NCBI GenBank assembly: GCA_021513695.1
Contig: CP084166.1
Coordinates: 1,536,001-1,600,000, forward strand
Length of the DNA: 64,000 nt
Direction of reading: 5' to 3'
Origin: Candidatus Heimdallarchaeum aukensis
Lineage (GTDB): Archaea > Asgardarchaeota > Heimdallarchaeia > Heimdallarchaeales > Heimdallarchaeaceae
Below the pieces are notes generated by a model. It saw only the letters and a list, made by a program, of their open reading frames with translations. It had not been told where the DNA came from and made no database searches. The position numbers and the translations under genes are program-made. This document shows positions 4,938 through 61,272 of this stretch, in pieces. The stretch's first letter is position 1; each line of letters starts with the position of its first letter.

Positions 4938-5060
4938 CCTATTTTTTTTAGAGAATAGCCTATAATATAGAGAATACTAACAGCATATTTATAAAGGATA
5001 AATCCTATTTAACACTTTTGAATAAGGAAAGAATCTTTTTCCATTTTAAAAAAAAGAAAA

Positions 5061-44663: not shown

Positions 44664-45237
44664 GGTAATTACTTTATCAAAATAAATTTAAGAATTTGGA
44701 TAGACGGATGAAATTTAAGCAAAGAAAAATTGTACGATAATCGAAGGTTCTGTAAAAATAAAAAATAGGGTATTACACCCTACTTCTTTCTAACTGGTAG
44801 AGGAACTAATGAAGAAACTCTATGCTTATAATCTTTATATGCGCTGTATTTAGAAAGCAGTCTATTCTCCATAAGATACTTTTTTACGTAAAAAACTAAA
44901 TTTTTAGTTTGTGGAGTTATTAGACTAATAACAACCAGAAACACATTTGCATTAATAAAGAATATACAATATTATGGGTGTCACAACTTTTCCGCTGTCT
45001 TTATATATTCAATTATCATTTATCTAGTGTCTTGAGCTAGATGCTTAAAGACGTAGGTTTCATTCCTACGACACCCGGTCTTCCCTGTGGGAGTGATGAG
45101 TGCCCGGGATCAGGAGATGAACCCCTTAGAGAACTCACTTAAGACTGTGTCTTTCATGTTCTCTTAACCCAGTCTTCACAACTTTCGCTATGTTTGTTGA
45201 CTGGTTGGGTAGAGTCCTGAAGAAATTACGTAAAATT

Positions 45238-47833: not shown

Positions 47834-49498
47834 ATGTATGGGCAAGGCCAAGTACCAGTGATAGTCCTAAAAGAAGGAACAGAAAGGACAAAAGGAAAAG
47901 ATGCACAGAGAAATAACATAATGGCAGCACAAGTAGTAGCTGAAACAATTAAGACCACCCTAGGTCCAAAGGGTATGGATAAAATGCTCGTTGACGGGCT
48001 AGGAGATATTTTGATATCTAATGATGGTAAAACAATTCTTGACGAAATTGACGTCAAGCATCCTGCAGCAAAGATGATGGTTGAAGTAGCAAAAGCTCAA
48101 GACCAAGAAACAGGAGATGGTACCACTTCAAGTGTTACCCTTGCTGGAGAATTGCTAAAAAACGCTACTGATCTTTTAGACAAACAGATTCATCCTTCAA
48201 TAATTGTTGAAGGCTATAAAGCAGCTGCTGAAAAAGCTGAAGAGATCTTACAAGAATTAGCCAAGCAATTTGATCCTTTTGGCGATGAACAAATTCTGTT
48301 CAAGATTGCTAATACTTCATTAAACAGCAAATCTGTATCTGGCGCTAAAGAGCACATTGCTCAACTAGCAATTAACGCTGTAAAGAAGGTTGCAGATGAA
48401 GATAATGGCAATCATATCGTTGATCTTGATAACATTAAGATTTTACAAAAATCAGGTAAGAGTTTAGCCGAGTCTGAACTTATTGAAGGAGTAATTATTG
48501 ATAAAGAAGTTGTTCACCCTGGTATGCCAAAGCAAGTTAAAGAGGCAAAGATTCTTCTACTCAATCAAAACATTGAGATCGAAAAAGGAGAATTTGACAA
48601 AGAAATTAGAATTAGCGACCCTCTACAGATGCAAAGTTTCTTAGAAAATGAAGAAGCTATGTTAAGAGAGATGGTTGAGCAGATAGCTACTACAGGAGCC
48701 AATGTTTTAATCTGTCAGAAAGGAATCGATGACATGGCCCAATATTTCCTTGCAAAGAAGGGTATTATGGCTGTTCGTCGCGTTAAAAAATCTGACATGG
48801 AGAAACTTTCACGTGCTACAGGAGGAAAAGTAATTAGTAATTACAAAGACGCTAAAGCTGAGGATCTTGGCTATGCTGGACTAGTTGAAGAAGTCAAAAT
48901 TGGTGATGATGATCACGTTTTTGTTCGTGAATGTAAGAATCCTAAAAGCGTTTCTATTATTCTCCGTGGAGCTACAAAATACGTTACTGATGAAGCTGAA
49001 CGTGCTCTTCATGATGCTCTATGTGTAGCTCGTAATGCTGTTGAAGACAAAACCTATTTACCTGGTGGAGGAGCTACTTATCTTGAGCTTGCTAAACAGC
49101 TAAATGTTTTCGCTGAAGAGTTCAAAGACAAACGTCAAATGGCAGTTAAGGCTTTTGCTCAAGCTCTTGAGGTTATTCCTACCACTTTAATTGAAAATGC
49201 AGGTTTAGATCCTATTTCAATCATGAACGAATTAAAAGCTGCACATGCTTCTGAAAACGGTGTTTCTATGGGTCTAAATCTTTTTAAGAATGGTCAAGTT
49301 CTTGACATGTTTGCTGAAGGAATAATTGAACCTCTTCGAGTAGTTAGTCAAGCTGTTAAGTCAGCTTCTGAATCAGCTATAATGATTCTAAGAATCGATG
49401 ATGTAATTGTCGCTAAGGCTTCCTCTCCACAAGGTCCACCTGGCGGTGGTGGAATGGGCGGCATGGGCGGCATGGGCGGCATGCCTGGTATGATGTAA
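47834..49498 (+). CDS. ths: Thermosome subunit (group II chaperonin)
   Basis: [16 protein letters not shown] and VPGGGA motifs, and a C-terminal [16 protein letters not shown] tail. Confidence 0.9.
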
Positions 49499-49577
49499 TT
49501 TTTTTCTTATCAATTTTTTTTATTAACTTTGATTTTTCATTTTCTTACTTTGTTTATTCTTTGGGAAAATACTTTTA

Positions 49578-49904
49578 TTGTTCCTCTCTCACAATGTAGA
49601 TATGACCAAGCAAAATAAATCAAAATTTGATCGCATTACTTGGATTGTCACAGAGTTGATTATTGGCTTTGCTGCCGCAGGTTATGGAGTTTATGGTTTA
49701 TTTAAAGGTTTACCAGAACAAAAGATTGTCCACATAATTATTGCTTCTATTGGTGGGGTTCTATTATTACTTGCTTTTAGTCAGATTCTTATATTAAGAG
49801 GTAAAAAGAAAAGAACTAAAGAAATCAAGCATTGCCCCAAATGTGGAGCTGAAGTCCAAAAAGGAGATGAACACTGCAGAAAATGTGGAGAAAAATTAAA
49901 ATAA
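49578..49904 (+). CDS. Small membrane protein with a C-terminal zinc-ribbon (CPKCG...CRKCG)
   Basis: Two hydrophobic helices followed by a CxxC-x10-CxxC ribbon. Confidence 0.45.
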   Translation: MFLSHNVDMTKQNKSKFDRITWIVTELIIGFAAAGYGVYGLFKGLPEQKIVHIIIASIGGVLLLLAFSQILILRGKKKRTKEIKHCPKCGAEVQKGDEHCRKCGEKLK

Positions 49905-49922
49905 TAATTATTTGCTCTTTTC

Positions 49923-50309
49923 TTATTTCCAAACTTTTAGAAACTCTGGCATTTCTTCGAAGTTTACAATTGGTATTGATACGGGCCATCTAGCATCACT
50001 TACTTCATCAGCGAATTCGAACTCTTCCTTTGGACTTGTTCTATATCTTATAAATGATCCTGCAGGAGGTTCATCATTTTCTATCCAGACCACTATTGGA
50101 AGAGCTCTTAAGTTATAGTATCCTAAGCTAGTGTTGAACATGAAAAAAATATTCCTATTCGCTTCTTTTTCATAAAAATATCCAATATAACCAGTCACTC
50201 TATCTGATAAAGTTGAAGCAATGAGTTTTATTATATCTGATAATCCCTTAAGTTTTATTGACGCAGCTTTTTTTATATTATCTACTATTTCATCCATATT
50301 AACCACCAA
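49923..50309 (-). CDS. Hypothetical 128-aa protein of unknown family
   Basis: No motif recognised. It lies immediately downstream of the orphan ATPase c-subunit gene on the same strand. Confidence 0.35.
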   Translation of the reverse strand: MVVNMDEIVDNIKKAASIKLKGLSDIIKLIASTLSDRVTGYIGYFYEKEANRNIFFMFNTSLGYYNLRALPIVVWIENDEPPAGSFIRYRTSPKEEFEFADEVSDARWPVSIPIVNFEEMPEFLKVWK

Positions 50310-50328
50310 AAATAAAAAAATAAGAAGT

Positions 50329-50634
50329 TTAGAAGATTAATAGAATAGCTACAAGTAGACCATAAATTGCTACTGCTTCAATAAGCACGATGAACAAGAA
50401 GATTTTACCAAAAATCTCTGGTTTTTCAACTAATGCGCCTATACCAGCCGAACCAGCTGAACCCATTCCGAGTGCACTACCGATTCCTGCTAGACCTATT
50501 GCTAGAGCAGCGCCTATAGGTCTCATATCTCCTTCTTCACCTAGAGGAATTTCTGCAGCGAATGTACCTTTTGCGGTTATAATGATAAGCGCAACAATTG
50601 CTAGTAGTCCAATAATCAGATCATTTTTTTTCAT
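50329..50634 (-). CDS. A/V-type ATP synthase proteolipid (subunit c/K)-like protein, orphan copy
   Basis: GAALAIGLAGIGSALGMGSAGSAGIGALVEKPEIFGKIFLFIVLIEAVAIYGLLVAILLIF matches the A-type c-subunit hairpin with the carboxylate in IEAVAIYG. The likely start is the internal ATG at 50634; the ORF track starts at 50730. Confidence 0.6.
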   Translation of the reverse strand: MKKNDLIIGLLAIVALIIITAKGTFAAEIPLGEEGDMRPIGAALAIGLAGIGSALGMGSAGSAGIGALVEKPEIFGKIFLFIVLIEAVAIYGLLVAILLIF

Positions 50635-50834
50635 AATACGTCCCTTTTTCACGTGTTTAAAATTACAAATCATCGTTTCTTTATTAGTTTTTTGTATTGG
50701 ATACTTTTTAATATTGAATACTTTTTTCAATAAAAAAGTTTTAAGAATAACATATTTTATATTTCATGTATAAGTAAGAAAGCAAACCTATAATAAATGG
50801 GAAAACTTTATGATTATTAAGAAAAGATTCTATC

Positions 50835-51452
50835 GTGAGTAAAATGTTTGGAAACTTTATGAGATGGTTATTAGGAACTCAAAAATCAAGTAGAGACCAT
50901 ATAGTAAACCTTAAACTAACTATTCGCAGACTAGAAAGAGCTCAAAGGAAACTGGAGAGAGATGAATCAAGAATACAACTAAAAATGCGAACAGCTATTC
51001 AGCGTGGTGATTTAGAAGGTGCCCGTCTTTATGCTACAGATATTGTTCGTTCTCGTAAGTGGGTTTTAGGTTACCAGCGTTTAGTTTCTCGTATTAATGG
51101 TCTTATTTTTAAACTAGAACGAGCTGATTCTGCTGCTAACTTGGCAGCTGAAATGCATTCTATTGCAGGAGCTCTTCGACAAGCTAACGCTCAATTAAAT
51201 GTTCCTGATTTAGATCATGTTATTCAAGACATGGAACGTAGTATTGATGGAATTGAGGATTCAACTGAAACAATTGAAGATGGAATTGATGATCTTCTTA
51301 TTGCTGATACCGACCCAGCTGAAGTCGATAGGTTAATTGACCAAACAGCTACAGAGATGGGTGTTAGTGTAGGAGGAGAACTCCCTTCAGTAAGCGCTGT
51401 TGCAACAGACGATCTCGAGGAAGAGATTCAAAAATTAAGGAAAAAAGAGTAA
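50835..51452 (+). CDS. ESCRT-III (Snf7/CHMP family) protein
   Basis: 205 aa. N-terminal basic helices (LKLTIRRLERAQRKLERDE...), an acidic C-terminal half and a terminal LEEEIQKLRKK MIM-like helix. Confidence 0.75.
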   Translation: MSKMFGNFMRWLLGTQKSSRDHIVNLKLTIRRLERAQRKLERDESRIQLKMRTAIQRGDLEGARLYATDIVRSRKWVLGYQRLVSRINGLIFKLERADSAANLAAEMHSIAGALRQANAQLNVPDLDHVIQDMERSIDGIEDSTETIEDGIDDLLIADTDPAEVDRLIDQTATEMGVSVGGELPSVSAVATDDLEEEIQKLRKKE

Positions 51453-51467
51453 ATATGAGGTGTTTAT

Positions 51468-52127
51468 ATGGGTATGAAAAACTGGTTATTTGGAACCAAA
51501 CGCAAGGATGATGCTGAAGCTTTAGCTACACTCAAAGCTCAGATCAATCGATATGAGCACGAGTCCCGCAATTTAGAACGTCAAGCTGATGAACAAAAAT
51601 CTTTAGCTGCTAAGATGTTAAAGTCGGGTAATAAAGCTGGAGCTAAACAAGCTCTTAAGCGTCGAGCTATTTATATGAAACGTTTAAATCAGGTTCAAAA
51701 TATGCTAATGAACCTTCAGAGTCAGATTGATAGTATTCAAACTGCAACCTCTACTGTTGAAACAGTAAAGGCAATGGAGTTAGGTACGAAAGTTGTCAAG
51801 ACGAAGATGCAAGAAGTTGATGTAGAGAAAACTGAACGTGTAATGGATGAAGTTATGAGTCAACGTGATGAAATTGAAATGATGACAGAAGCTTTATCTG
51901 ATACTGCACTAAGTGAGAGCATTTTAGATTACGAAGATGATGTCGCAATTGATGATCAACTTGCTCAATTAGAAGCCGAGATGAATCTTGGTAAAACAGA
52001 AGAATTACCAGATCTTTCAGATCTTCCTTCAACTCCATCAGAAAAACCGACTGAAAAAGAAGAAGATACTTCTGACCTTGAAGCCGAATTAGCTTCTCTT
52101 AAGAAGAAGTTAAGTGATGACAAATAA
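51468..52127 (+). CDS. ESCRT-III (Snf7/CHMP family) protein, second paralog (Vps20/32/60-like; begins MG)
   Basis: 219 aa. Same basic-then-acidic helical hairpin organisation, ending ELASLKKKLSDDK. Lies directly upstream of Vps4. Confidence 0.75.
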   Translation: MGMKNWLFGTKRKDDAEALATLKAQINRYEHESRNLERQADEQKSLAAKMLKSGNKAGAKQALKRRAIYMKRLNQVQNMLMNLQSQIDSIQTATSTVETVKAMELGTKVVKTKMQEVDVEKTERVMDEVMSQRDEIEMMTEALSDTALSESILDYEDDVAIDDQLAQLEAEMNLGKTEELPDLSDLPSTPSEKPTEKEEDTSDLEAELASLKKKLSDDK

Positions 52128-52254
52128 TAATAATCAAATTCTTTTTTCAATTCTTTTTTTCATCATTTTAGAAACGAACAGTTTTTTAACGATAATGATG
52201 TTACTAGTTTAGTAATTCAATTAATAGGATTATTCAGTTAGAGAGGTTAAAGAA

Positions 52255-53400
52255 TTGAGCGCGCAAGGACTGATTGAACACGCACGTAAATTTGCAAAAA
52301 AAGCTTATGAACTTGATAAGGCAAAACAATACAATGAGGCAATACCACTTTATCTCGACGCTGCAGAAGCTCTAATGAAAGCAATAAAATTTGAAAGAAA
52401 TCCACAAGTGGGAAAGACATTAAAGAAAAAAGCAGAGATGTACATTGAACGAGCAAAAGATCTAAAAGAAATTATTGAGAAAAAAGCTGAAAAGGGGGCA
52501 GAAACAGGGTCAGACGAAGAATCTGATAAATTAGAAGGAGCAATTAGCGATATCATAGTTACAGAAAAGCCATCAGTTACTTTGGATGATATTGCAGGAC
52601 TAGAAGAAGCAAAACGGAATCTTCGAGAAGCAATAGTGTTACCTCTTGTAAGACCAGACTTATTTAGTGGTGCAAGAAGACCATGGAAAGGGATTTTACT
52701 TTTTGGCCCCCCAGGATGTGGAAAAACTCTTTTAGCAAAAGCAACAGCTGCAGAAGTAGAAGCTACGTTTTTTAATGTTAGTGCGTCCGCGGTTATATCC
52801 AAATGGTTAGGAGAATCTGAAAAATTAGTTAATACATTATTTAAAATTGCTCGTGAAAGGCAACCAAGTATAATTTTCATAGATGAAGTAGATGCTCTTA
52901 CCGGAGCACGTGGTGGCGAGCATGATGCTATGCGCAGAGTTAAAACTGAATTATTAACTTCTATGGATGGTTTATCTAGCTCTGCTCAAGATCGTCTTGT
53001 AGTTATTGGGGCTACTAACCTTCCTGAGTCTATTGATGGAGCTTTTCGCCGTCGTTTTGAGCGTCGTATTTACATTAAGCTTCCAGATTTTGAAGCGCGT
53101 AAAGCTATCTTTCAACTAAATGTCAAAGGAGTGGACTTAGCTCCCGATGTTGATTTTGAATCTTTAGCAGAGATTACAGAAGGTTATTCTGGAGCAGATA
53201 TTGCTATGGTTTGTCGCGATGCTATTATGACTCCTATTCGTGAACTTGATTTATCAGGAGACATTCATGACCCCAATATTAAAGCCAGACCAGTTACACA
53301 AAAAGATTTTCTTGAGTCTATTCAGTCAGTTAATCCTTCTGTAAGTGCAGAAGAAATCGAGAAATATGAGAAATGGAATGAAGAATTTGGTTCAGCGTAA
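52255..53400 (+). CDS. Vps4-like AAA+ ATPase with an N-terminal MIT domain
   Basis: MIT-like three-helix N-terminus (AKKAYELDKAKQYNEAIPLYLDAAEAL), Walker A GPPGCGKT, Walker B IIFIDEVD and a second region of homology; 381 aa. Confidence 0.85.
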   Translation: MSAQGLIEHARKFAKKAYELDKAKQYNEAIPLYLDAAEALMKAIKFERNPQVGKTLKKKAEMYIERAKDLKEIIEKKAEKGAETGSDEESDKLEGAISDIIVTEKPSVTLDDIAGLEEAKRNLREAIVLPLVRPDLFSGARRPWKGILLFGPPGCGKTLLAKATAAEVEATFFNVSASAVISKWLGESEKLVNTLFKIARERQPSIIFIDEVDALTGARGGEHDAMRRVKTELLTSMDGLSSSAQDRLVVIGATNLPESIDGAFRRRFERRIYIKLPDFEARKAIFQLNVKGVDLAPDVDFESLAEITEGYSGADIAMVCRDAIMTPIRELDLSGDIHDPNIKARPVTQKDFLESIQSVNPSVSAEEIEKYEKWNEEFGSA

Positions 53401-53707
53401 AAGGGTGTTTTTATGATTTACCTTTTTACGTAAGTTTTTCGCACTCGGTCTTTCAAGGGAGAAAACAGGAGTTTCATCACTTGATAACTCAACCACAACA
53501 TACAATGAAAGGAAACGTGGTTAAGACAGACGTCATACACGAATCGTGGGAATCATAAAGAAGGAAAAGAAAAAAGTAAGAAAGGAGAAAAGAAAGGAGG
53601 TTATCTCCTTCTTTATTCTACTTTCTTTTCTTTCCTTCACTCCACGAGAGACGAAAAAACAAACAAATAATCCTCTAACAAGAGAGAATGTAAGTTTATA
53701 TTTTCAT

Positions 53708-55161
53708 CTACTGGGGCTGCAACCAATGGCTGAGCCCTTGGCAAACAGTGAAATGAGTGAGACTAAATTTACGACCAGTGAGTAGATCAGTAATAGTTGT
53801 TGCACGGGGGCGGAAAAGAGAACTAAGGAGCAGACGAGCGATATTCATTGCTCCTGTTAGATCAGAGTGGAAGGTGTAATTGCAAGAGGGACAATAAACT
53901 AACCCTCTAACGGGGCGGGTAACTTTTTTTCCGCAACGGGCACAGTGAGATGATGTTCCTCTTTCCTCTATCGTCAGAATTCGGTGAGAGGGAAAACCTC
54001 TAAGTATTAGTGCACGACGGATAAAAGAAAGAACAAGAGCATAGTTCCACTGGTGAAGTTTTCTTCGTGACTTGCGATTAGTTACTCCCTTATTTTTTTC
54101 TCGTCGAATGTATTTAGGATAACCTATAACAACGAAAAGATTATAGATCCGAGCATAAACCTCTATTGTCCACACGATAGCACTTACAAATTGATTGATA
54201 TACGCTCGTCTGACGTTTCTATACCTCCGACGGAGACGTTTGAGAAAACGGTAAACTTGGTGTTTTTTACCCGATTGGTCGTTTAAAGCTGCTTTCCTCT
54301 GAAGACGGGAAAGTTTGAGTTTATATCGATGATTAACTTTATTCCACTGTTTGGTATACTAGAACTTTATTTCTTTACTTGTTACCTTCTTTTTCGGGGT
54401 CAGTAGCACTTCTACCGCAGGAATGTTTATCCCTAGATCTATTCCCAGCACAGCTGGGGGAAGAAAAGAAGAGTCAGAAGAAAGATTATCTCCCTGAAGG
54501 AAAGAAGAAGGAAGAACTTTTGAATGAAAATATATCCACCATTCACGTGTAGAACGTTTGTATCTTATTTCTAAACTTTTTACTCTTTCTTTAATTCTTT
54601 TTGATGAAACTCGCTCATCTCTAAAGGTAACCACAATCGCTGATGAAAACGTGTTTTTCTTTTCCACCTATCTAACGAGTCTCGTATTCCTACCCACCAA
54701 CGAGAAAGAGTGTTATTCTTATCTTTTGGTAGATGGACGAGGATGAACCTTTTTTTATTAATTAATTGTCTTCTTGCTCTCTTTCTTGGAGGACGAGTAT
54801 TGTTAGGTCTATATCCTTGCTCATATAGTTGCACAGCTATATCTCTACATTCTTGAAACTCATCGTGAGAACAATAGGGAAACATTTTCTTCATATCGTG
54901 AGGAACAGTCGTTCTTCTTTCTTCCTCTTTTTTTACTCTCGAGGTCGTTAATGTCAATTCGTCTAATTTTCCTTTATGTACTTTTATTTTCCCTTCTTTT
55001 GCTTTAATACCTATTTTTTTTCTGTTATGGTGTATAATTCTCACATACTTTTCTATTATTCTAGTATCTCTCCCCGTTATTCTCCTTAACTTTTCTTTTT
55101 TTCTCGTCGTCAATACTTCATTCTTCACTCTCACCTTTAACGTTTTGACGACGTCCTCCAT
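53708..55161 (-). pseudogene. Degenerate TnpB (IS200/IS605 OrfB; OMEGA-type RNA-guided nuclease family) split into at least three ORFs by frameshifts
   Basis: N-terminal part LKVRVKNEVLTT...; C-terminal zinc-finger block CARCGKKVTRPVRGLVYCPSCNYTFHSDLTGAMNIARL. Three overlapping minus-strand ORFs (54580-55161, 54359-54667, 53708-54175). GC content is well above the surroundings. Confidence 0.65.
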
Positions 55162-55329
55162 CCTTTTTTTCTCCTCTTATTTTACTCTCTCTTTTTTTCT
55201 ATTTTTTTCTCTTCTTTTACTTCTTCTCTTCCTCATTATACTTTTTTTCCCTATAAAAAGTCCTTTCTTTTCTTTTTTTCTCATTATTCTTCCTCAATTT
55301 TTATATAAAGTTATGTAAAATAGTAAATC

Positions 55330-56130
55330 ATGGCTACAATGGAAAAACAAAAAGATAATGAATTTGAGCAAATTGATCTTGAAAAATTGAAAGAAGAAAA
55401 GAAAATATCAGAAGATAAGCTTAAGCTTATTGAAGCCAGTATTAAGGGATTAAAAGTTTCAGAAGAAGAACTGAAGTCCACGAAACCTATTGTTAGAGAA
55501 GAAGCAAGATTAGAACTAACAGAAGACACAAAGACGAAGCTAATTAAAGAATTTGAGCAAAGTTTACCTGATTGGGTTAACAAGCCTTGGATGTATGTCA
55601 CCCCAAAAAAGGCAAATCAAGTTGAGTCTTGGTTAGACAGTTGGTCATCAGTCATGCTTGATTATACAAAGAAATTTGTTATTCATATTGTTAATGTCAA
55701 TTCTCTTAGAGAAACTTATCCTTTTTGTAATAAGAAAATAAGAAAAGAACTTACCATCGATCAAATTCGTGATATCATCGATTTTCTTGAAACAAAGGGT
55801 TTTGCTCTTTGGATAAATGATAGGACAAAATTCTTTGAGAAACTTTTTGCAAAGATACTTGGAAAACCTTTAACAAAAAAGATCCGTGCAAAGATAGAAT
55901 GGAAAACAAAAGAAGAATTTGCTGAAGATTTACTTAAATGGATGATTGAAACCGGTAGAGTAGTTGAAGTTCACTCTTTATATGATTTAACAAAATATGA
56001 ACAACCCTGGTCTTCTTTACCTTCAGATGATTTAATCCATGTATGCAATTTACTCGTAGAAAAAGGTTCTGCTAGATGGTTAAATAGAGAAAGAACTATA
56101 ATTTCCTTTGAAGCAACAAAGGTATTCTAA
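55330..56130 (+). CDS. ESCRT-II Vps25-like protein (tandem winged-helix) with an N-terminal charged coiled-coil extension
   Basis: About 170 aa C-terminal region with the PWMYVTPKKANQVESWLDSW...IRDIIDFLETKGFALWI pattern resembling Vps25 WH domains. Sits in the ESCRT locus. Confidence 0.5.
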   Translation: MATMEKQKDNEFEQIDLEKLKEEKKISEDKLKLIEASIKGLKVSEEELKSTKPIVREEARLELTEDTKTKLIKEFEQSLPDWVNKPWMYVTPKKANQVESWLDSWSSVMLDYTKKFVIHIVNVNSLRETYPFCNKKIRKELTIDQIRDIIDFLETKGFALWINDRTKFFEKLFAKILGKPLTKKIRAKIEWKTKEEFAEDLLKWMIETGRVVEVHSLYDLTKYEQPWSSLPSDDLIHVCNLLVEKGSARWLNRERTIISFEATKVF

Positions 56131-56183
56131 CTTTAATTTTTATTTTAATTTTATTTATTTACTATTTTTTGTGATGTAATGCT

Positions 56184-56621
56184 ATGTTTAAAAATTATAT
56201 ATTGAATAGACTTTTGAGATTTATGTCTTTAGACGATGAAGAATTACAAAGGATTCGAGAAAAAAAGGCACAACAACTTAGGCAAATTTTAGAACAGAGA
56301 AAATCAAAAATGGAACAACTTAAACAAGAGGAAACAGCGCCAAAAAGCATTACAAAAGAGGACAAGTATCGTTTAATGAATTATTTTCTAACTGATGACG
56401 CTTTTTCTTATTGGAAGAGTCTATATGAAAATCCACAAAAGCATAATACAGCAGAAACAATTTTCATTAATTTGCTCTATCTGATTAAGATTGGTTTTAT
56501 GGAAGGAAAACTTATCTCTCTTCTAGGAATTAAAAAATTAGAAAGAAAAATAGATAATATTCCTTCTAAAATCACAATAAAGAGAAAAGGAGAAAAAGAA
56601 AGATCCAAAGTTTTGGATTAA
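56184..56621 (+). CDS. PDCD5/TFAR19-like putative DNA-binding protein
   Basis: N-terminal LDDEELQRIREKKAQQLRQILEQRK matches the PDCD5 family opening motif, and the C-terminal LISLLGIKKLE...ITIKRKG is consistent with it; 145 aa. Confidence 0.4.
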   Translation: MFKNYILNRLLRFMSLDDEELQRIREKKAQQLRQILEQRKSKMEQLKQEETAPKSITKEDKYRLMNYFLTDDAFSYWKSLYENPQKHNTAETIFINLLYLIKIGFMEGKLISLLGIKKLERKIDNIPSKITIKRKGEKERSKVLD

Positions 56622-56697
56622 TAATTGACTTTTACTTATTAGGTTACATTTATTTAGGATAATGAAAATAAAGTATTAGAAAGGAGCTGATGGATAA

Positions 56698-56934
56698 ATG
56701 AAGTTGAGTATTGTTACCGCAATAGGAGGAGGTCTTTTAGAATTAGATGTTGATAGCCATCAAACAATTGCACAACTTAAAAGAGAAGTTTCAAGAATTA
56801 AAAAGATACCTGCAAATACAGTTATTTTGGTTCATCATGGTCAACAGTTAGATGATGGTGAAACAATTAAGAGTTGCGGATTACAAGAAGGAGATAAACT
56901 CTATCTAATTGCAAGAACAAAAGGTGGACTTTAG
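56698..56934 (+). CDS. Ubiquitin-like beta-grasp protein ending ...KGG-L
   Basis: HGQQLDDGETIKSCGLQEGDKLYLIARTKGG aligns with ubiquitin [30 protein letters not shown]. 78 aa, with a single residue after the di-Gly. Confidence 0.8.
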   Translation: MKLSIVTAIGGGLLELDVDSHQTIAQLKREVSRIKKIPANTVILVHHGQQLDDGETIKSCGLQEGDKLYLIARTKGGL

Positions 56935-57009
56935 CTTTTCTATTTCAAAATTTTTTTAGAAGAATAGAAACTGTTTTATTACTTCTAAAAGATATTTTTG
57001 TGAAAGTGG

Positions 57010-58014
57010 ATGTCTAAAGAAGGTAGATATGCGAGACAGACTCTCATACCTGGTTGGAATCAGAAGAAACTCAACAAATCAACAGTTATTATTGTTGGTG
57101 TGGGAGCAATTGGATCATATGTATCAACGATTTTAGCTTCTTCAGGAGTAAAAAATCTCATTCTAATTGATTTTGATACTATTGAAATCTCTAATCTTAA
57201 TCGTCAATTACTATTTCGGGATGGAGATATTGGAAAATCCAAATCTGAAATTGCAGCTATGCGATTATCGGAACTAAATCCAGATATTAACATTACCTTT
57301 CATCATAAGAAGATGCAAGATTTACCTATTTCTATTTACAAAAAAGCAGATGTCATTGTGGCTTGTCTTGATACCTTCATTGGAAGAAGATGGATAAATT
57401 CACTTGCTGTAAAAATAAACAAACCTTTAATTTTAGGTGGAATGTTTGCTTTTCTAGGAGATGTTCAAGTTGTTTTACCAAAAAAAACTGCTTGCTTTGA
57501 TTGTCAACCTTTAGTTGCAGAAAGAGAACTTGCGCAAGCTTGTACTCCATTCGGAGAAGAAAGGAAGAAAAACAGAGAAGAAAAAGAGGATGAAGCGAAA
57601 TTACCATCTGTAGCCACATTGTCTGCGATTATCGGAGGAATTATGGCACAAGAAGCCTTAAAACTTCTTTTAGACATAGGTGAACCAATCAAGAATTATC
57701 TTTTCTATGATGGATTACATAATGCAACAACAATAATTGAACTTGCAAGAAGAAAAAAAGATTGTCCAACTTGTGGAGAACTATATGAGTTGGAACAAGT
57801 CGAATTTGTGGTAAATAAAGATAATACCGTCAAAGAACTATTAATCCAATTAGGTTTACAATTCGGACTTGAGAGCCCAGACATTATGATTAAAGGGAGG
57901 ATACTCCCTCACGATTCAAAAATCCAAGAACTAGGTATAAAAAATAACATGAAGGTTTTTGTAATGGACAAAAATTTAGCTTCACCAATCAAGTTAAAGT
58001 TAAAGATTGAGTGA
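57010..58014 (+). CDS. E1-like ubiquitin-activating enzyme (ThiF/MoeB/UBA fold) with a C-terminal extension
   Basis: Rossmann GVGAIGSYV with IDFDTIEISNLNRQ; CFDC...CPTC zinc tetrad; about 70 extra C-terminal residues. Lies immediately downstream of the ubiquitin-like gene. Confidence 0.8.
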   Translation: MSKEGRYARQTLIPGWNQKKLNKSTVIIVGVGAIGSYVSTILASSGVKNLILIDFDTIEISNLNRQLLFRDGDIGKSKSEIAAMRLSELNPDINITFHHKKMQDLPISIYKKADVIVACLDTFIGRRWINSLAVKINKPLILGGMFAFLGDVQVVLPKKTACFDCQPLVAERELAQACTPFGEERKKNREEKEDEAKLPSVATLSAIIGGIMAQEALKLLLDIGEPIKNYLFYDGLHNATTIIELARRKKDCPTCGELYELEQVEFVVNKDNTVKELLIQLGLQFGLESPDIMIKGRILPHDSKIQELGIKNNMKVFVMDKNLASPIKLKLKIE

Positions 58015-58025
58015 AAAAAGAAAAT

Positions 58026-58751
58026 TTAGGTGTGTGACAGTCCAGGGAAATAATATTTAGTTCCTTCAGCATAGGAACTATCTACTCTTGCTATACCATT
58101 TTCTTCAAAAAATGATAAGCAACGATTAATTCTTTCCTCTGCCCACCCTGTTCTAAGTAATAGATCTTCTTTTGTTACAAATCCTGTTCTTGAAGCAATG
58201 TTTAATATTACATCATGGTCGGGACTGAATTCAACAGGAGCAAATTCTACTAGTTTCACTCCAGATTCTAAAACTTTGAAAGGTGGAATTAATTTTGAAT
58301 TTATGAGTTTCTCTAATGAACGATACAAGTCATCAATTGTAACTAGTTTTCCAGGTCTAGTTTTATTTAATTGGGTAAACAATTCACCTACAGACATTAT
58401 ACCTCCATTTTCTTCTATAAGTTTTTGACCCAAATCCATGATTTCGTTTGCTAAAACATCATAGAAACCTTTTCCTGTTAATCTATCTTTTAGAGTTGGA
58501 GCTTCTTTCCATTCATATCTCCCTATTTCTGTAGGTAAGCCTAGTTCTTCTCGCAGGCCAGCAAGTTTTTCATAATATTCTTTATTTTCAACTATTTTAT
58601 CACCATATTTCTTTTCAAATTTCTTTAGTTGCTTTTTAACTTGTTTAATATTTTCCAACATTTGTTCTAATTCTTTTATCATTAATTCGGCTTCTTTAAC
58701 TTGGAAAGCTGACTTCACTTTTAATTTCTTTTCAATATCTCTTAAGCCCAA
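58026..58751 (-). CDS. ESCRT-II Vps22/Vps36 (EAP30-domain)-like protein
   Basis: N-terminal coiled coil followed by a tandem winged-helix region (GGIMSVGELFTQLNKTRPG...IDDLYRSLEKL) resembling EAP30. Confidence 0.55.
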   Translation of the reverse strand: MGLRDIEKKLKVKSAFQVKEAELMIKELEQMLENIKQVKKQLKKFEKKYGDKIVENKEYYEKLAGLREELGLPTEIGRYEWKEAPTLKDRLTGKGFYDVLANEIMDLGQKLIEENGGIMSVGELFTQLNKTRPGKLVTIDDLYRSLEKLINSKLIPPFKVLESGVKLVEFAPVEFSPDHDVILNIASRTGFVTKEDLLLRTGWAEERINRCLSFFEENGIARVDSSYAEGTKYYFPGLSHT

Positions 58752-58823
58752 CTTTAATCACTATTTTTTATTTGTCAGTGAGATATAAAAAATATACTAT
58801 TTAATTTCGCAATTAGCTTAGAG

Positions 58824-59132
58824 TTAAAAAAGGAGAGGAAGTCTTCTAATCCACTCTTTAATTGAATTCATAAGCTTTTTAGATTCATTTGGAGGAAGAA
58901 AAGCTGCTAGTTTGTCTTTATAGTTTTTGTATAGTTTTTGATAAACGCTGTCCATTTCATCAACAATTGAATCATTTACCAAATTGATTTTTTTAACAAG
59001 ATGTTTTATCTCTTCCAACTCTTCTAAGATGTATGAACAGTCAATTTTTATTTCTAAGAGATCCATCAACTCGAATAAACTATCTTTTGCTTTATTATAG
59101 GTATTTTCTAAAGATTTTCTCCTAGAAATCAT
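58824..59132 (-). CDS. Small helical hypothetical protein in the ESCRT locus (possibly a Vps28-C/Vps37-like ESCRT-I accessory)
   Basis: 102 aa, predicted all-helical. Lies between the UEV/Vps23-like and EAP30-like genes on the same strand. No motif recognised. Confidence 0.3.
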   Translation of the reverse strand: MISRRKSLENTYNKAKDSLFELMDLLEIKIDCSYILEELEEIKHLVKKINLVNDSIVDEMDSVYQKLYKNYKDKLAAFLPPNESKKLMNSIKEWIRRLPLLF

Positions 59133-59168
59133 GTTTACTCCTCTAAAAAGGCTGGATAAAAGATAGGA

Positions 59169-60638
59169 CTACATATCTTTTAAAATTCGTCTAAATTCGT
59201 TTAACCATCTTGATGCTTGGAATTCTAGTTTTTCACAATCGTCTTCATTTATTATTTCACTTGGTTTATAATTTGAAAGAATGTCTTTCCAGTTTTTCAT
59301 ATCGCTGAGCATCCAATGATCTTGCGGAATAGATGGAAACGAGTGCAAAACATGAATTAGCTCTTCTACGTCAGCCAACAGCAAATCAGCTCGTGCGACT
59401 GATTTAAGCCTTGTTAGATCAATTAATTCAATTGCAGCTGAAACAAAATCAGCTGTTTTTACAGGCATTTTCTTTAAGGATTCAAATGGTATCATTTCAA
59501 CATCTTTAGTTCCAGTTCCTTCAGCCATTTGTAGCAATCTCATTCCTTTGTCAAATCTATTTAGCAGATTTTCTTGCTCTATAAACGAATCGAGATCAAA
59601 TCCACCTAATTGTTCCAGTTTCATTCTTGTTTTGAAAACTGTTCTTATTAGTGATCTTAACTGCTTTTTATATGCAACTTGCTCAATCTCACCATTTTCA
59701 TACCCTCTCGCTAAATTATCTAATGTCACTATTGCTGCATATAAATCAGCTTCAAAATCTAATCTTTTATCTAAATCACTAGGCATTACTTGTCCTCCAA
59801 CATTTTCTAAATAAGCTAATTTTTTATTTGTCTTATAACTTTCCACTGAATATTTTCTATAAAGTTTCAAGTAATCAACACTTGAAAGATCTCCATCATC
59901 AAATTTCTCATTTAATAGCTCTAATAAGTCATTAGATGCTCTTGAACTTGCTTTTAAATCATCGGTTACAGAAATTGTAAGTTCTTTTAATGAATGTGAA
60001 GGCTCAGCTTTCTTGATTAGAGCAGCTCTTTTTTCCTCAATTTGTTTATTTAGTTCGTTTATCTGCTGCTGATACGCTTCTATCTCTGCTTCAATAGTAC
60101 TTTTTTCTATCGATGTTTGACTCCGTTCATTAAAGGATGGTACACTTTGCTTACGTACAGTGTGACGTGAAACTGTTCTTGGTTTCATCGGTTGAACTAC
60201 AGATCTAGACACACTCCTAGCTGTAGACATATGCTTTGTTCTTAATGGTCTTGCAGGAACATTAGCAAATAATCGCCGAATATCATTTATAACTTGATAA
60301 ATATGATAGCGTGGTTTCCATTGAGCGAGTATTTGCAAACTAAGAAAGTCATTGTCGTCAACATTAGGATGATTTACTTTAGGAGTAATTTCAACTTGAG
60401 GAGGAATTCTTGGGAACTCTGGAGAGATATATATTGTAGCATAAACAGTTATCTTCGTTCCTTGAATTATCCCTACAGGGCCTTTCCACTTTCTTAAATT
60501 GCCTCCTACTGGCTCAAATCCTTCAACATTATTATAAATTAATTGCATCTCATTAGCAAGAATCTGATCTAGAGAAATTTGTCTCACCTTTACTCTTCTA
60601 TTATTGTTATAAACTTCAAAGTTTAAAAAATATTGCAT
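59169..60638 (-). CDS. UEV-domain (ubiquitin E2 variant) protein with a central coiled coil; ESCRT-I Vps23/Tsg101-like
   Basis: The N-terminal UBC fold has the HPNV motif, but the catalytic Cys position reads FLSLQIL rather than ICLDIL, so it is an inactive E2 (UEV). A long coiled-coil region and a C-terminal helical domain follow. Confidence 0.65.
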   Translation of the reverse strand: MQYFLNFEVYNNNRRVKVRQISLDQILANEMQLIYNNVEGFEPVGGNLRKWKGPVGIIQGTKITVYATIYISPEFPRIPPQVEITPKVNHPNVDDNDFLSLQILAQWKPRYHIYQVINDIRRLFANVPARPLRTKHMSTARSVSRSVVQPMKPRTVSRHTVRKQSVPSFNERSQTSIEKSTIEAEIEAYQQQINELNKQIEEKRAALIKKAEPSHSLKELTISVTDDLKASSRASNDLLELLNEKFDDGDLSSVDYLKLYRKYSVESYKTNKKLAYLENVGGQVMPSDLDKRLDFEADLYAAIVTLDNLARGYENGEIEQVAYKKQLRSLIRTVFKTRMKLEQLGGFDLDSFIEQENLLNRFDKGMRLLQMAEGTGTKDVEMIPFESLKKMPVKTADFVSAAIELIDLTRLKSVARADLLLADVEELIHVLHSFPSIPQDHWMLSDMKNWKDILSNYKPSEIINEDDCEKLEFQASRWLNEFRRILKDM

Positions 60639-60729
60639 TCAAAAAAAAGAGTCTTTTCTTGAGAAAAAAATATATGAAAAAAAATTGATTATAATTCTAA
60701 ATTACAATAGAACCTAGGAATAAACTCTT

Positions 60730-61272
60730 TTACTTTCTATTTTTGACTAAAAGTGTAGCTAGTTTCACAAATGCTTCTTGAACATGTTCTCCTGTAAGTG
60801 CACTTGTTTTTATGAAATCCAAACTATTGATTTTGTTTTGTAATGATTTACATTCATCATCTGATACAGCAATTTTATCTTCTAAATCATTTTTATTTCC
60901 AACTAAGATGGTAAGGGTGTTCTTTCCACAGTTTTTAACAAGTTCAGAGTTCCATTTCTCTAGATCAGTTAGTGTTGAATTCCTGGTTAAATCGAAAACC
61001 ATCAGTGCTGCTTTTGCTCCTTTAAAGAAAGTATGTCTTATAAACCTAAATCTATCTTGTCCTGCTAGATCCCAAATTGAAAGAGCTACAACTGTATTGT
61101 CCTCTAATGTAACAAATTTCTCACTCGGTTCCATACCTATTGTCATCAGATAACTTTGTTCAAAACGATTATGAACAAAACGTTGTACAAGAGATGTCTT
61201 TCCTACAGCGGCGGCACCTAATAGAAGTATTTTGAAATTGAAATCAGGACGAATTGAACGCATTATTCTCAA
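60730..61272 (-). CDS. Ras/Rab-like small GTPase
   Basis: G1 GAAAVGKTSL, G3 WDLAGQDRF, G4 GNKNDL, G5 SAL; 180 aa. Confidence 0.85.
   Translation of the reverse strand: MRIMRSIRPDFNFKILLLGAAAVGKTSLVQRFVHNRFEQSYLMTIGMEPSEKFVTLEDNTVVALSIWDLAGQDRFRFIRHTFFKGAKAALMVFDLTRNSTLTDLEKWNSELVKNCGKNTLTILVGNKNDLEDKIAVSDDECKSLQNKINSLDFIKTSALTGEHVQEAFVKLATLLVKNRK

Follow-up and report, generated by a model that had tools for sequence, protein, structure and literature searches.

A recently inserted and inactivated TnpB-only element between the Vps4 and ESCRT-II genes of Candidatus Heimdallarchaeum aukensis

The genome of Candidatus (Ca.) Heimdallarchaeum aukensis carries, within a stretch of 64,000 nucleotides that was analysed as a whole (contig CP084166.1, positions 1,536,001 to 1,600,000; in the following the window), an Asgard cluster of genes for ubiquitin and the endosomal sorting complexes required for transport (ESCRT), comprising two Snf7 genes, Vps4, an ESCRT-II Vps25-like gene, ubiquitin, a ThiF-type E1, EAP30 and a Vps23/Vps28-like fusion. 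In this cluster, Vps4 (52255..53400, plus strand, with the Pfam domains MIT, AAA, AAA_lid_3 and Vps4_C; stop codon at 53398-53400) is followed by 1.9 kb devoid of any plus-strand gene before the Vps25-like gene begins (55330..56130, plus strand, ATG at 55330). What is this DNA, and how did it come to lie between two ESCRT genes? An earlier interpretation, made from the letters alone (the sequence-only reading), regarded it as a decayed relic of an IS605-family TnpB element. Comparison with related loci leads to a modified answer, i.e., the segment 53413-55329 is very probably one copy of a multi-copy, TnpB-only element family of the Heimdallarchaeaceae which would be mobilised in trans. It represents an ordinary copy of an already known kind of element, inserted as well as inactivated not long ago, and is notable for its landing site and its ends. 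The earlier recognition of a pseudogenised TnpB element without a transposase gene of its own, including the place of its omega RNA, holds, whereas the transposon-family label is not supported and the three reading frames and the term relic need correction.

The boundaries of the element follow from alleles in which it is missing. Three metagenome contigs of the Joint Genome Institute (L077, L078 and L079), whose flanks share 97.2-99.5% DNA identity with the window, read TAA-AAGGTGTTTTT-ATG at this site and feature only 11 nt from the Vps4 stop codon to the next gene. Likewise, the site is empty in Ca. H. endolithica, where a 12-nt spacer (AGAGGTGATTAT) contains the Shine-Dalgarno motif GAGGTGA. 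All empty alleles have Vps4 and the Vps25-like gene separated by 11-12 nt that include a Shine-Dalgarno motif, which agrees with the earlier claim that an insertion parts Vps4 from the ESCRT-II gene. The discrete block that had been seen behind the Vps4 stop codon could be bounded by this comparison at 53413 and 55329 (1917 bp, minus strand). In a BLAST alignment, L077 joins window position 53415 to 55330, with its positions 5001-5003 matching 53413-53415 as well as 55330-55332. Both are plus-strand ATG copies (CAT in the sense of tnpB), the left one (53413..53415) being either a 2-3-bp target duplication or a CAT that terminates the right end of the element, and the right one (55330..55332) being the start codon of the Vps25-like gene. 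Because ATG flanks the element on both sides, the register of the boundary is ambiguous by up to 3 nt. The transition from the empty C-CAT-A to the filled CAT/element...CAT/A fits zero duplication and a 2-3-bp duplication alike.

The filled allele was seen independently in Logan contigs from the runs SRR15988954 and SRR15988959, which break within the element, as expected for a repeat. Two of these contigs from one run (L001, ending at 53452, and L080, starting at 55030) are broken off within the element, 40 nt from its right end and 300 nt from its left end, respectively. These breaks imply further copies in the sample which share 31-mers with the element interior and thus a family that is multi-copy in the source organism. 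The insertion is derived, recent and strain-polymorphic, its recency following from the polymorphism among strains with 97-99.5% identical flanks. The Vps25-like protein is 100% identical between the window and the empty-site alleles and shares 96% identity with its counterpart in Ca. H. endolithica. Over the region 48500-61100, the identity of the window to L077 amounts to 97.2-97.5% upstream (Snf7/Vps4 side) and 99.5% downstream (ESCRT-II/ubiquitin side), and this unequal divergence may reflect recombination between strains close to where the element was inserted.

The element encodes a TnpB on the minus strand. Three overlapping frames had been proposed for it; three-frame translation confirmed three open reading frame (ORF) fragments and revealed that they belong to one gene in two frames, interrupted by one frameshift and one nonsense codon instead of a single open frame. 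The N-terminal fragment (54586..55161, minus strand, ATG at 55161) includes the previously noticed N-terminus MEDVVKTLKVRVKN and lies in frame 0, which runs from 55161 to 54583 and stops at 54580-54582. The frameshift is caused by a 4-nt deletion at 54585..54586, found by DNA alignment with the closest intact copy (L082, 85% nucleotide identity) and two H. endolithica copies (L002 and L005), in which the homologues read AAAGAAA-GGGN-G and the window AAAGAAA/GAGTA. At the protein level, the frame changes at FHQKELKK/G-RVKSLE. The -1 frame extends from about 54667 to 53708 with a single interruption, an in-frame TAG (54359..54361) arisen by a G-to-A change at 54360, where all close homologues carry TGG and, in the protein alignment, Trp. 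The TAG separates the middle fragment (54362..54585, minus strand), which contains the RuvC-I motif AVLGIDLG, from the C-terminal fragment (53708..54358, minus strand, stop codon at 53708-53710), which holds a G-Y-P site, IEERGTSS, the CxxC...CxxC zinc finger and HSDLTGAMNIA. Compared with its homologues, the window copy additionally has an in-frame insertion of 3 nt and one longer RNA hairpin. The tnpB of this copy is dead, while the ends of the element and its RNA scaffold look intact. Since all catalytic and zinc-finger residues are intact as well, the inactivation looks recent. Accordingly, the two lesions bear out the proposed pseudogenisation, but with these residues and the RNA scaffold preserved and the insertion recent, relic is too strong a word.

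The homology to TnpB that had been suspected was verified by alignment to profiles and homologues, which also mapped the frameshift to 54585/54586. The NCBIfam profile NF040570 (guided_TnpB) matched residues 123-443 of the repaired, i.e., joined, sequence (E=1e-19, 70.9 bits), and the Pfam zinc-ribbon domain Cas12f1-like_TNB was detected above threshold in the C-terminal fragment (E=3e-9). PF07282 reached 37-40 bits at a cut-off of 26.3, and the match to PF01385 was weak (E=0.003). A database search returned 203 homologues, nine of which are intact proteins of 481-489 aa with 77-84% identity across the full repaired length, hosted by Ca. H. endolithica, Ca. H. aukensis and metagenome-assembled genomes (MAGs) of the Heimdallarchaeaceae. 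Two homologue clusters with 18 and 31 member sequences likewise imply a multi-copy family, and H. endolithica features 12 copies, eight with full ORFs and four disrupted. No other copy was detected in the 64-kb window by tblastn, blastn or nhmmer, and the viral contigs searched contained no relatives.

In 80 homologues of 30-85% identity, the residues D247, G352, E405, C412, C415, C429 and D439 are invariant and C432 is nearly so. The RuvC aspartates of the window protein (GIDLG and HSDLTG) occupy their canonical positions, the latter within RuvC-III (HSDLTGAMNIA), and the zinc finger CARCG...CPSC, correctly recognised from the sequence, is located between RuvC-II and RuvC-III. At the canonical RuvC-II Glu position, the same 80 homologues carry an invariant Gly (VVVGYPK, the G-Y-P site of the C-terminal fragment), and an invariant Glu, contained in IEERGTSS, stands six residues ahead of the first CxxC. 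Such an 'alternative E' arrangement of TnpB was published previously (PMC10711439), and the Ealt regular expression from the literature is satisfied by the repaired window protein and by 106 of 111 full-length homologues. In addition, a rearranged RuvC-II was described for 'TnpB2' and Fanzors and is active in TvTnpB of Thermoplasma volcanium (PMC10530073), and the RIIr clades represent the same relocated-Glu variant (PMC10691335). An AlphaFold model of P0001, the closest intact homologue and not the window copy itself, has a predicted local distance difference test score of 88.5 and was matched over its full length in Foldseek by Cas12f (1e-14), ISDra2 TnpB (1e-11), ISFba1 TnpB and Fanzor2 (5e-11). 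Judging by its motifs, the window protein is a TnpB-superfamily variant with a relocated RuvC-II Glu and as such of an already known kind. Intact members of the family would accordingly provide an RNA-guided RuvC nuclease of about 484 aa with the order D...G...E-x6-CxxC...CxxC...D.

The gene is followed by a conserved non-coding 3' tail (53413..53707, minus strand) which resembles an omega-RNA scaffold and is joined by an extra conserved helix within the final ~45 nt of the ORF, up to about 53750. The predicted place of the omega RNA (53450-53750) was thus nearly right. Between the tnpB stop codon and the right end, the tail measures 245-295 nt across copies (about 295 nt in the window), and it is more conserved than the coding sequence. 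RNAalifold predicted 70 pairs in 11 helices from 15 copies (alignment A2), including 12 pairs with compensatory changes. Pairing was possible in 97% of the cells versus 38-48% with partners slid by 1-3 columns, and the covariation score was 0.171 versus 0.03-0.06, both with the caveat that the alignment behind these figures is also the source of the structure. Folded alone, the window tail gives z=-6.3 and retains these helices. Its AG/CU hairpin of variable length (53557..53638, minus strand; inverted repeats I5 and I20) is 38-50 nt longer than in other copies examined. Rfam has no family matching the tail; sub-threshold microRNA-like matches, to which this long hairpin gives rise, were rejected as chance.

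By analogy with known TnpB systems, the tail probably represents the scaffold of an omega or right-end RNA (reRNA), and the guide would comprise the 16-20 nt beyond 53413. The structured 3' RNA of intact members, about 250-300 nt in length, would end at the right boundary, with the guide being read from the adjacent host DNA. The segment predicted for the window copy, AAAAACACCCTTTTACGCTG (53393..53412, minus strand), lies in the flank just past the right end, runs antisense to the stop codon and 3' end of Vps4 and equals the empty-site sequence adjoining CAT. Such a guide would target the empty Vps4/Vps25 junction beside a CAT-containing target-adjacent motif (TAM). Besides, two lone 3' tails, each with scaffold and right end and without tnpB, occur on a metagenome contig (L086:2090-2274 and L086:2868-2960). 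One of them starts exactly where the conserved GGAGTGAAG helix begins, and the two could represent either copies truncated on the 5' side or guide-RNA modules that stand alone.

How such an element moves is to be judged mainly from its ends. These form terminal inverted repeats (TIRs) of 25 nt with 84% complementarity (I4), namely the right end (53413..53437, minus strand, ...AAACTTACGTAAAAAGGTAAATCAT in tnpB sense), where the conservation among 13 copies stops exactly, and the left end (55307..55331, minus strand, ATGATTTACTATTTTACATAACTTT in tnpB sense). In the alignment of these copies, conservation starts with CATG-ATTTAC... at the left and ends with ...GTAAATCAT at the right, and the TIR reads GATTTACYTTTTTRCG, with variants in the subfamilies. 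TIRs of 25-31 bp ending in CAT(G) bound the elements of four diverged subfamilies, among them subfamily B (31 bp), subfamily C (52% protein identity) and group D (other MAGs, 41% identity); their sequences differ between subfamilies and match within each element. Each TIR comprises a pair of short direct sub-repeats spaced by roughly one helical turn (~10 bp), e.g., TTTAC...TTTAC, TTTTGCG...TTTTGCG or TTTTCCCCAC...TTTTCCCAC. Stable subterminal hairpins are absent from the ends in all four subfamilies, and B and D are free of any palindrome.

The absence of a TnpA, noted from the sequence before, was corroborated with a Y1 consensus probe, which detected no Y1 TnpA in the element, elsewhere in the 64-kb window or up to 3 kb around 46 related archaeal loci, while TnpA was found in the two bacterial control loci (L070 and L071). 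Together with TIRs that lack hairpins, this speaks against the IS605-family label. Neighbour clustering of ORFs of at least 120 aa in 48 loci yielded no recurrent transposase gene adjoining the 46 related loci; the recurrent neighbours were ABC ATPases, which are host genes unrelated to the element, and, in a distant subgroup, a HerA/DUF87 ATPase. Likewise, no serine recombinase gene was adjacent in the neighbour analysis, a search aimed at serine recombinases not having been made. An IS607 mechanism was judged unlikely by reasoning, as the shared dinucleotide AT is palindromic and TIRs are present, whereas IS607 features a non-palindromic crossover and no TIRs. A single metagenome TIR scan with ATGATTTACYTTTTTACGTAA gave seven matches, with TnpB adjacent in L088, L090 and L092, tail remnants in L086 and no TnpB within the short stretch retrieved for L087 and L089; the match in L091, a GC-rich contig, was judged to be chance. 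According to a published survey, TIRs characterise TnpBs associated with DDE transposases, asymmetric ends characterise those associated with Y1 or serine enzymes, and solo TnpBs are mobilised in trans (PMC10691335). Considering this pattern, the hairpin-free TIRs and the missing Y1 TnpA, mobilisation in trans by a TIR-binding transposase is favoured, in which an unlinked enzyme would bind the TIRs on double-stranded DNA.

Two neighbouring genes of related elements are to be mentioned here. In H. endolithica, an IS5-family element of 1017 bp (DUF4096 and DDE_Tnp_1; L014:346-1362 and L010:4867-5889) adjoins two of the TnpB elements. It was rejected as the mobilising partner, since its TIR (AAGCATGTCCAAAAATT) and its 6-7-bp target duplication do not match the TnpB family. 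In the distant subgroup (37-39% identity), a gene for a HerA/DUF87 (FtsK-like) ATPase of about 780-840 aa, with the same strand orientation as the element, terminates within or directly at the element's left end (L025:67-2589, L046:248-2596, L031, L035, L036 and L038; only the 3' end in L027). This pair was found in several MAGs, thrice in one of them, with both parts equally diverged (about 70% nucleotide identity). HerA/DUF87 and tnpB may constitute a conserved two-gene module, or the ATPase gene may be a preferred target.

Several points weigh against a family of TnpB-only elements mobilised in trans. A transposase recognising the TIRs was not found in the flanks, in the metagenome TIR scan or in the nearby IS5-family element. 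The close subfamilies share an invariant CAT 5' of the left end, but the base past the right end varies (G, A, C or T), an asymmetry more in keeping with IS605-style insertion 3' of a motif than with the symmetric target duplication of a DDE enzyme. Moreover, the 70.9 bits obtained with the guided_TnpB profile are below the curated NCBI naming cut-off of 100, which indicates a divergent lineage, and the transcription of the tail as a guide RNA is a prediction. Finally, the lesions of the window copy had no match in exact-product look-ups of the 193-aa and 155-aa ORF fragments, and the Logan contigs end at 53452 and 55030.

The best surviving alternative, a genuine IS200/IS605 element of the IS1341 type, is unlikely yet deserves to be retained because of the CAT asymmetry. 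It would be moved by a Y1 HUH TnpA encoded elsewhere in the genome, inserting by single-strand peel-and-paste 3' of CAT without duplication, so that the right end itself terminates in CAT. The invariant CAT 5' of the left end and the variable base past the right end are the pattern of IS605, and the empty and filled alleles are equally compatible with zero duplication. Furthermore, disrupted TnpB-only elements of the IS1341 type are common in archaea (PMC3119063), and the archaeal relocated-Glu protein TvTnpB goes with an IS605 TnpA (PMC10530073). Nevertheless, the ends of the present family are mutual inverted repeats of 25-31 bp that covary between subfamilies, and they contain tandem direct sub-repeats in place of stable hairpins, with B and D lacking palindromes altogether. 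A Y1 TnpA was found neither in the window nor within 3 kb of the 46 archaeal loci by a probe that was positive in two bacterial loci, and the survey links asymmetric ends to Y1 and serine TnpBs and TIRs to DDE ones (PMC10691335).

Sequencing or assembly errors in an intact gene could also account for the frameshift and the stop codon. The apparent origin of the source genome from a metagenome or an enrichment, the Logan contigs that stop inside the repeat before reaching the lesions and the full preservation of catalytic and zinc-finger residues are in line with this explanation. It is nevertheless quite improbable, as the 4-nt deletion is flanked by further substitutions and is not an error of homopolymer length, the stop codon is a clean G-to-A transition in a Trp codon, and a third of the sister genome's copies carry disruptions as well, which makes decay normal for the family.

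A different issue concerns the consequences of the insertion for the host genes. Vps4 and the Vps25-like gene, now split by the element, are otherwise almost certainly co-transcribed. By its insertion at ...C-CAT/A... (tnpB sense) in the 11-nt operon spacer, the element has brought 1.9 kb of antisense DNA between two genes whose translation is otherwise linked. Since ATG borders the insertion left and right, the Vps25-like gene has kept its start codon; the displaced Shine-Dalgarno motif AGGGTG (53402-53407) is now 1.9 kb away from the gene it formerly served. ESCRT-II expression would now depend on a promoter inside the element or at its edge. One could go further and suppose that the element has been co-opted, with its left end acting as a new ESCRT-II/ubiquitin promoter or with its RNA regulating Vps4 by antisense pairing. 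The left end contains a palindromic TATA-like box (TTTATATAAA, 55300..55309, either strand) 30 nt ahead of the retained ATG, the RNA of the tail would extend in antisense direction into the 3' end of Vps4, and the Vps25-like protein is unchanged. That this box is a bidirectional archaeal promoter, reading outward or inward, is speculative. It is specific to the window copy, without a conserved counterpart in the others, and 8-mers of this kind turn up roughly once in 5 kb, with 13 occurrences of TTTATATA in the window on both strands and three of the 10-mer per strand. Moreover, the insertion is strain-polymorphic and absent in the sister species, i.e., there is no sign of fixation, and co-option appears even less probable than errors in the sequence. 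Finally, synthesis of a full-length TnpB by programmed -1 ribosomal frameshifting and stop-codon read-through is highly improbable, for although a -1 shift near 54585 restores the frame, the intact homologues use a single frame from which the window differs by a deletion, the site lacks a canonical slippery heptamer, the TAG stands for a conserved Trp, and no homologue has the same two-frame arrangement.

A copy of a putatively trans-mobilised, TnpB-only family shares features with several known systems. With the TnpB/omega-RNA elements of the IS200/IS605 group (ISDra2, IS608, ISFba1) it has in common the protein superfamily and fold including WED/REC, RuvC and the zinc finger, the structured RNA which overlaps with the gene's 3' end and extends to the right boundary, and the CAT directly 5' of the left end at the position of the TAM. 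It differs from them by the lack of a Y1 TnpA in the window and the 46 loci and by TIRs in place of asymmetric ends with subterminal hairpins. In addition, the Heimdallarchaeial protein has a relocated RuvC-II Glu, is about 80 aa longer and possesses a conserved C-terminal extension. The Gly at the canonical site and the Glu six residues before CxxC are those of the TnpBs with rearranged RuvC-II (the 'TnpB2' TvTnpB; RIIr, Altae-Tran 2023; Ealt, Yoon 2023), and distant members of the family likewise feature an NADxN-like RuvC-III motif; TvTnpB, however, is located in an IS605 element with TnpA. In its TIRs, and in the distance of about 250-300 bp from the 3' end of tnpB to the end of the element, the family resembles DDE-associated and solo TnpBs with symmetrical ends (e.g., the IS630-linked DDE-6 branch; PMC10691335), the solo copies of which are presumed to be mobilised in trans. 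In contrast to these, neither the flanks nor the metagenome TIR scan revealed a DDE transposase with matching TIRs, the targets show an asymmetric pattern, and the repeat flanking the window element is AT/CAT as compared with the TA of IS630/Tc1.

In architecture, and with no claim of ancestry, the family also resembles the eukaryotic Fanzor1/2 cut-and-paste elements, with which it shares the relocated Glu, the TIRs and a short flanking repeat, and whose guide-RNA scaffold would similarly include the TIR. Unlike Fanzors, it resides in an archaeal host and features D-L-G and not D-P-G in RuvC-I. Membership of the pro-Fanzors was rejected, as D-P-G occurs in none of the 111 homologues, though the relocated Glu is present in 106. 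Haloarchaeal IS1341-type elements and the palindrome-associated transposable elements (PATEs), which are derived from them and consist of termini only, are comparable in being TnpB-only and multi-copy, with many frameshifted or stopped copies (PMC3119063), and possibly in a terminal-only remnant at 44870-44905; they differ in lacking TIRs and in carrying near-terminal palindromes (PMC3119063). The putative remnant lies in an intergenic region of 650 nt, where CATAAGATACTTTTTTACGTAAAAAACTAAATTTTT matches an idealised fusion of left and right TIR at 29 of 36 positions, the maximum in 200 simulated windows being 27. It may be a PATE-like terminal-only remnant or an excision product of a related element.

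Because similar associations have already been catalogued, the family extends the known diversity and constitutes no new category. There is a slight chance that it is nonetheless an undescribed kind of TnpB transposon, i.e., TnpB-only, with sub-repeat TIRs, inserted 3' of CAT in the closer subfamilies, with a Fanzor-like Glu and moved by a transposase of neither Y1 nor serine type which is not encoded nearby. If so, it would be the prokaryotic counterpart, in architecture, of the Fanzor-bearing cut-and-paste elements; alternatively, the TAM requirement of TnpB would impose an asymmetric target pattern on a TIR transposon. Such an undescribed kind would sit in the archaeal lineage closest to eukaryotes. 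The significance of the window copy is modest. The coexistence of filled and empty alleles in related samples amounts to a natural experiment on how tightly archaeal ESCRT genes have to be co-expressed, and the clean pair of alleles defines the target site and the ends of the element family. Moreover, the combination of TIR ends, invariant left CAT and relocated Glu in the Heimdallarchaeia could help to explain how TnpBs are carried outside IS605 and IS607.

With regard to composition, the sequence-only reading had described the block as GC-rich and foreign. The GC content of the element is mildly raised (36.6% versus a window mean of 32.6%, the 95th percentile of equal-sized windows), but the neighbouring Vps4 gene is higher (38.1%), and only 53700-53999 at the 3' end of tnpB stands out, being with 46.3% the most GC-rich 300-nt stretch of the window. 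The CT-rich tract that had been noticed at 55160-55300 is real, with 86.5% pyrimidine and a single G, and no other 141-nt stretch in the 64 kb is more strand-skewed. It corresponds to a conserved leader of the element (55162..55306, minus strand), which is purine-rich in the sense of tnpB, precedes the gene at its 5' side and is present in all copies.

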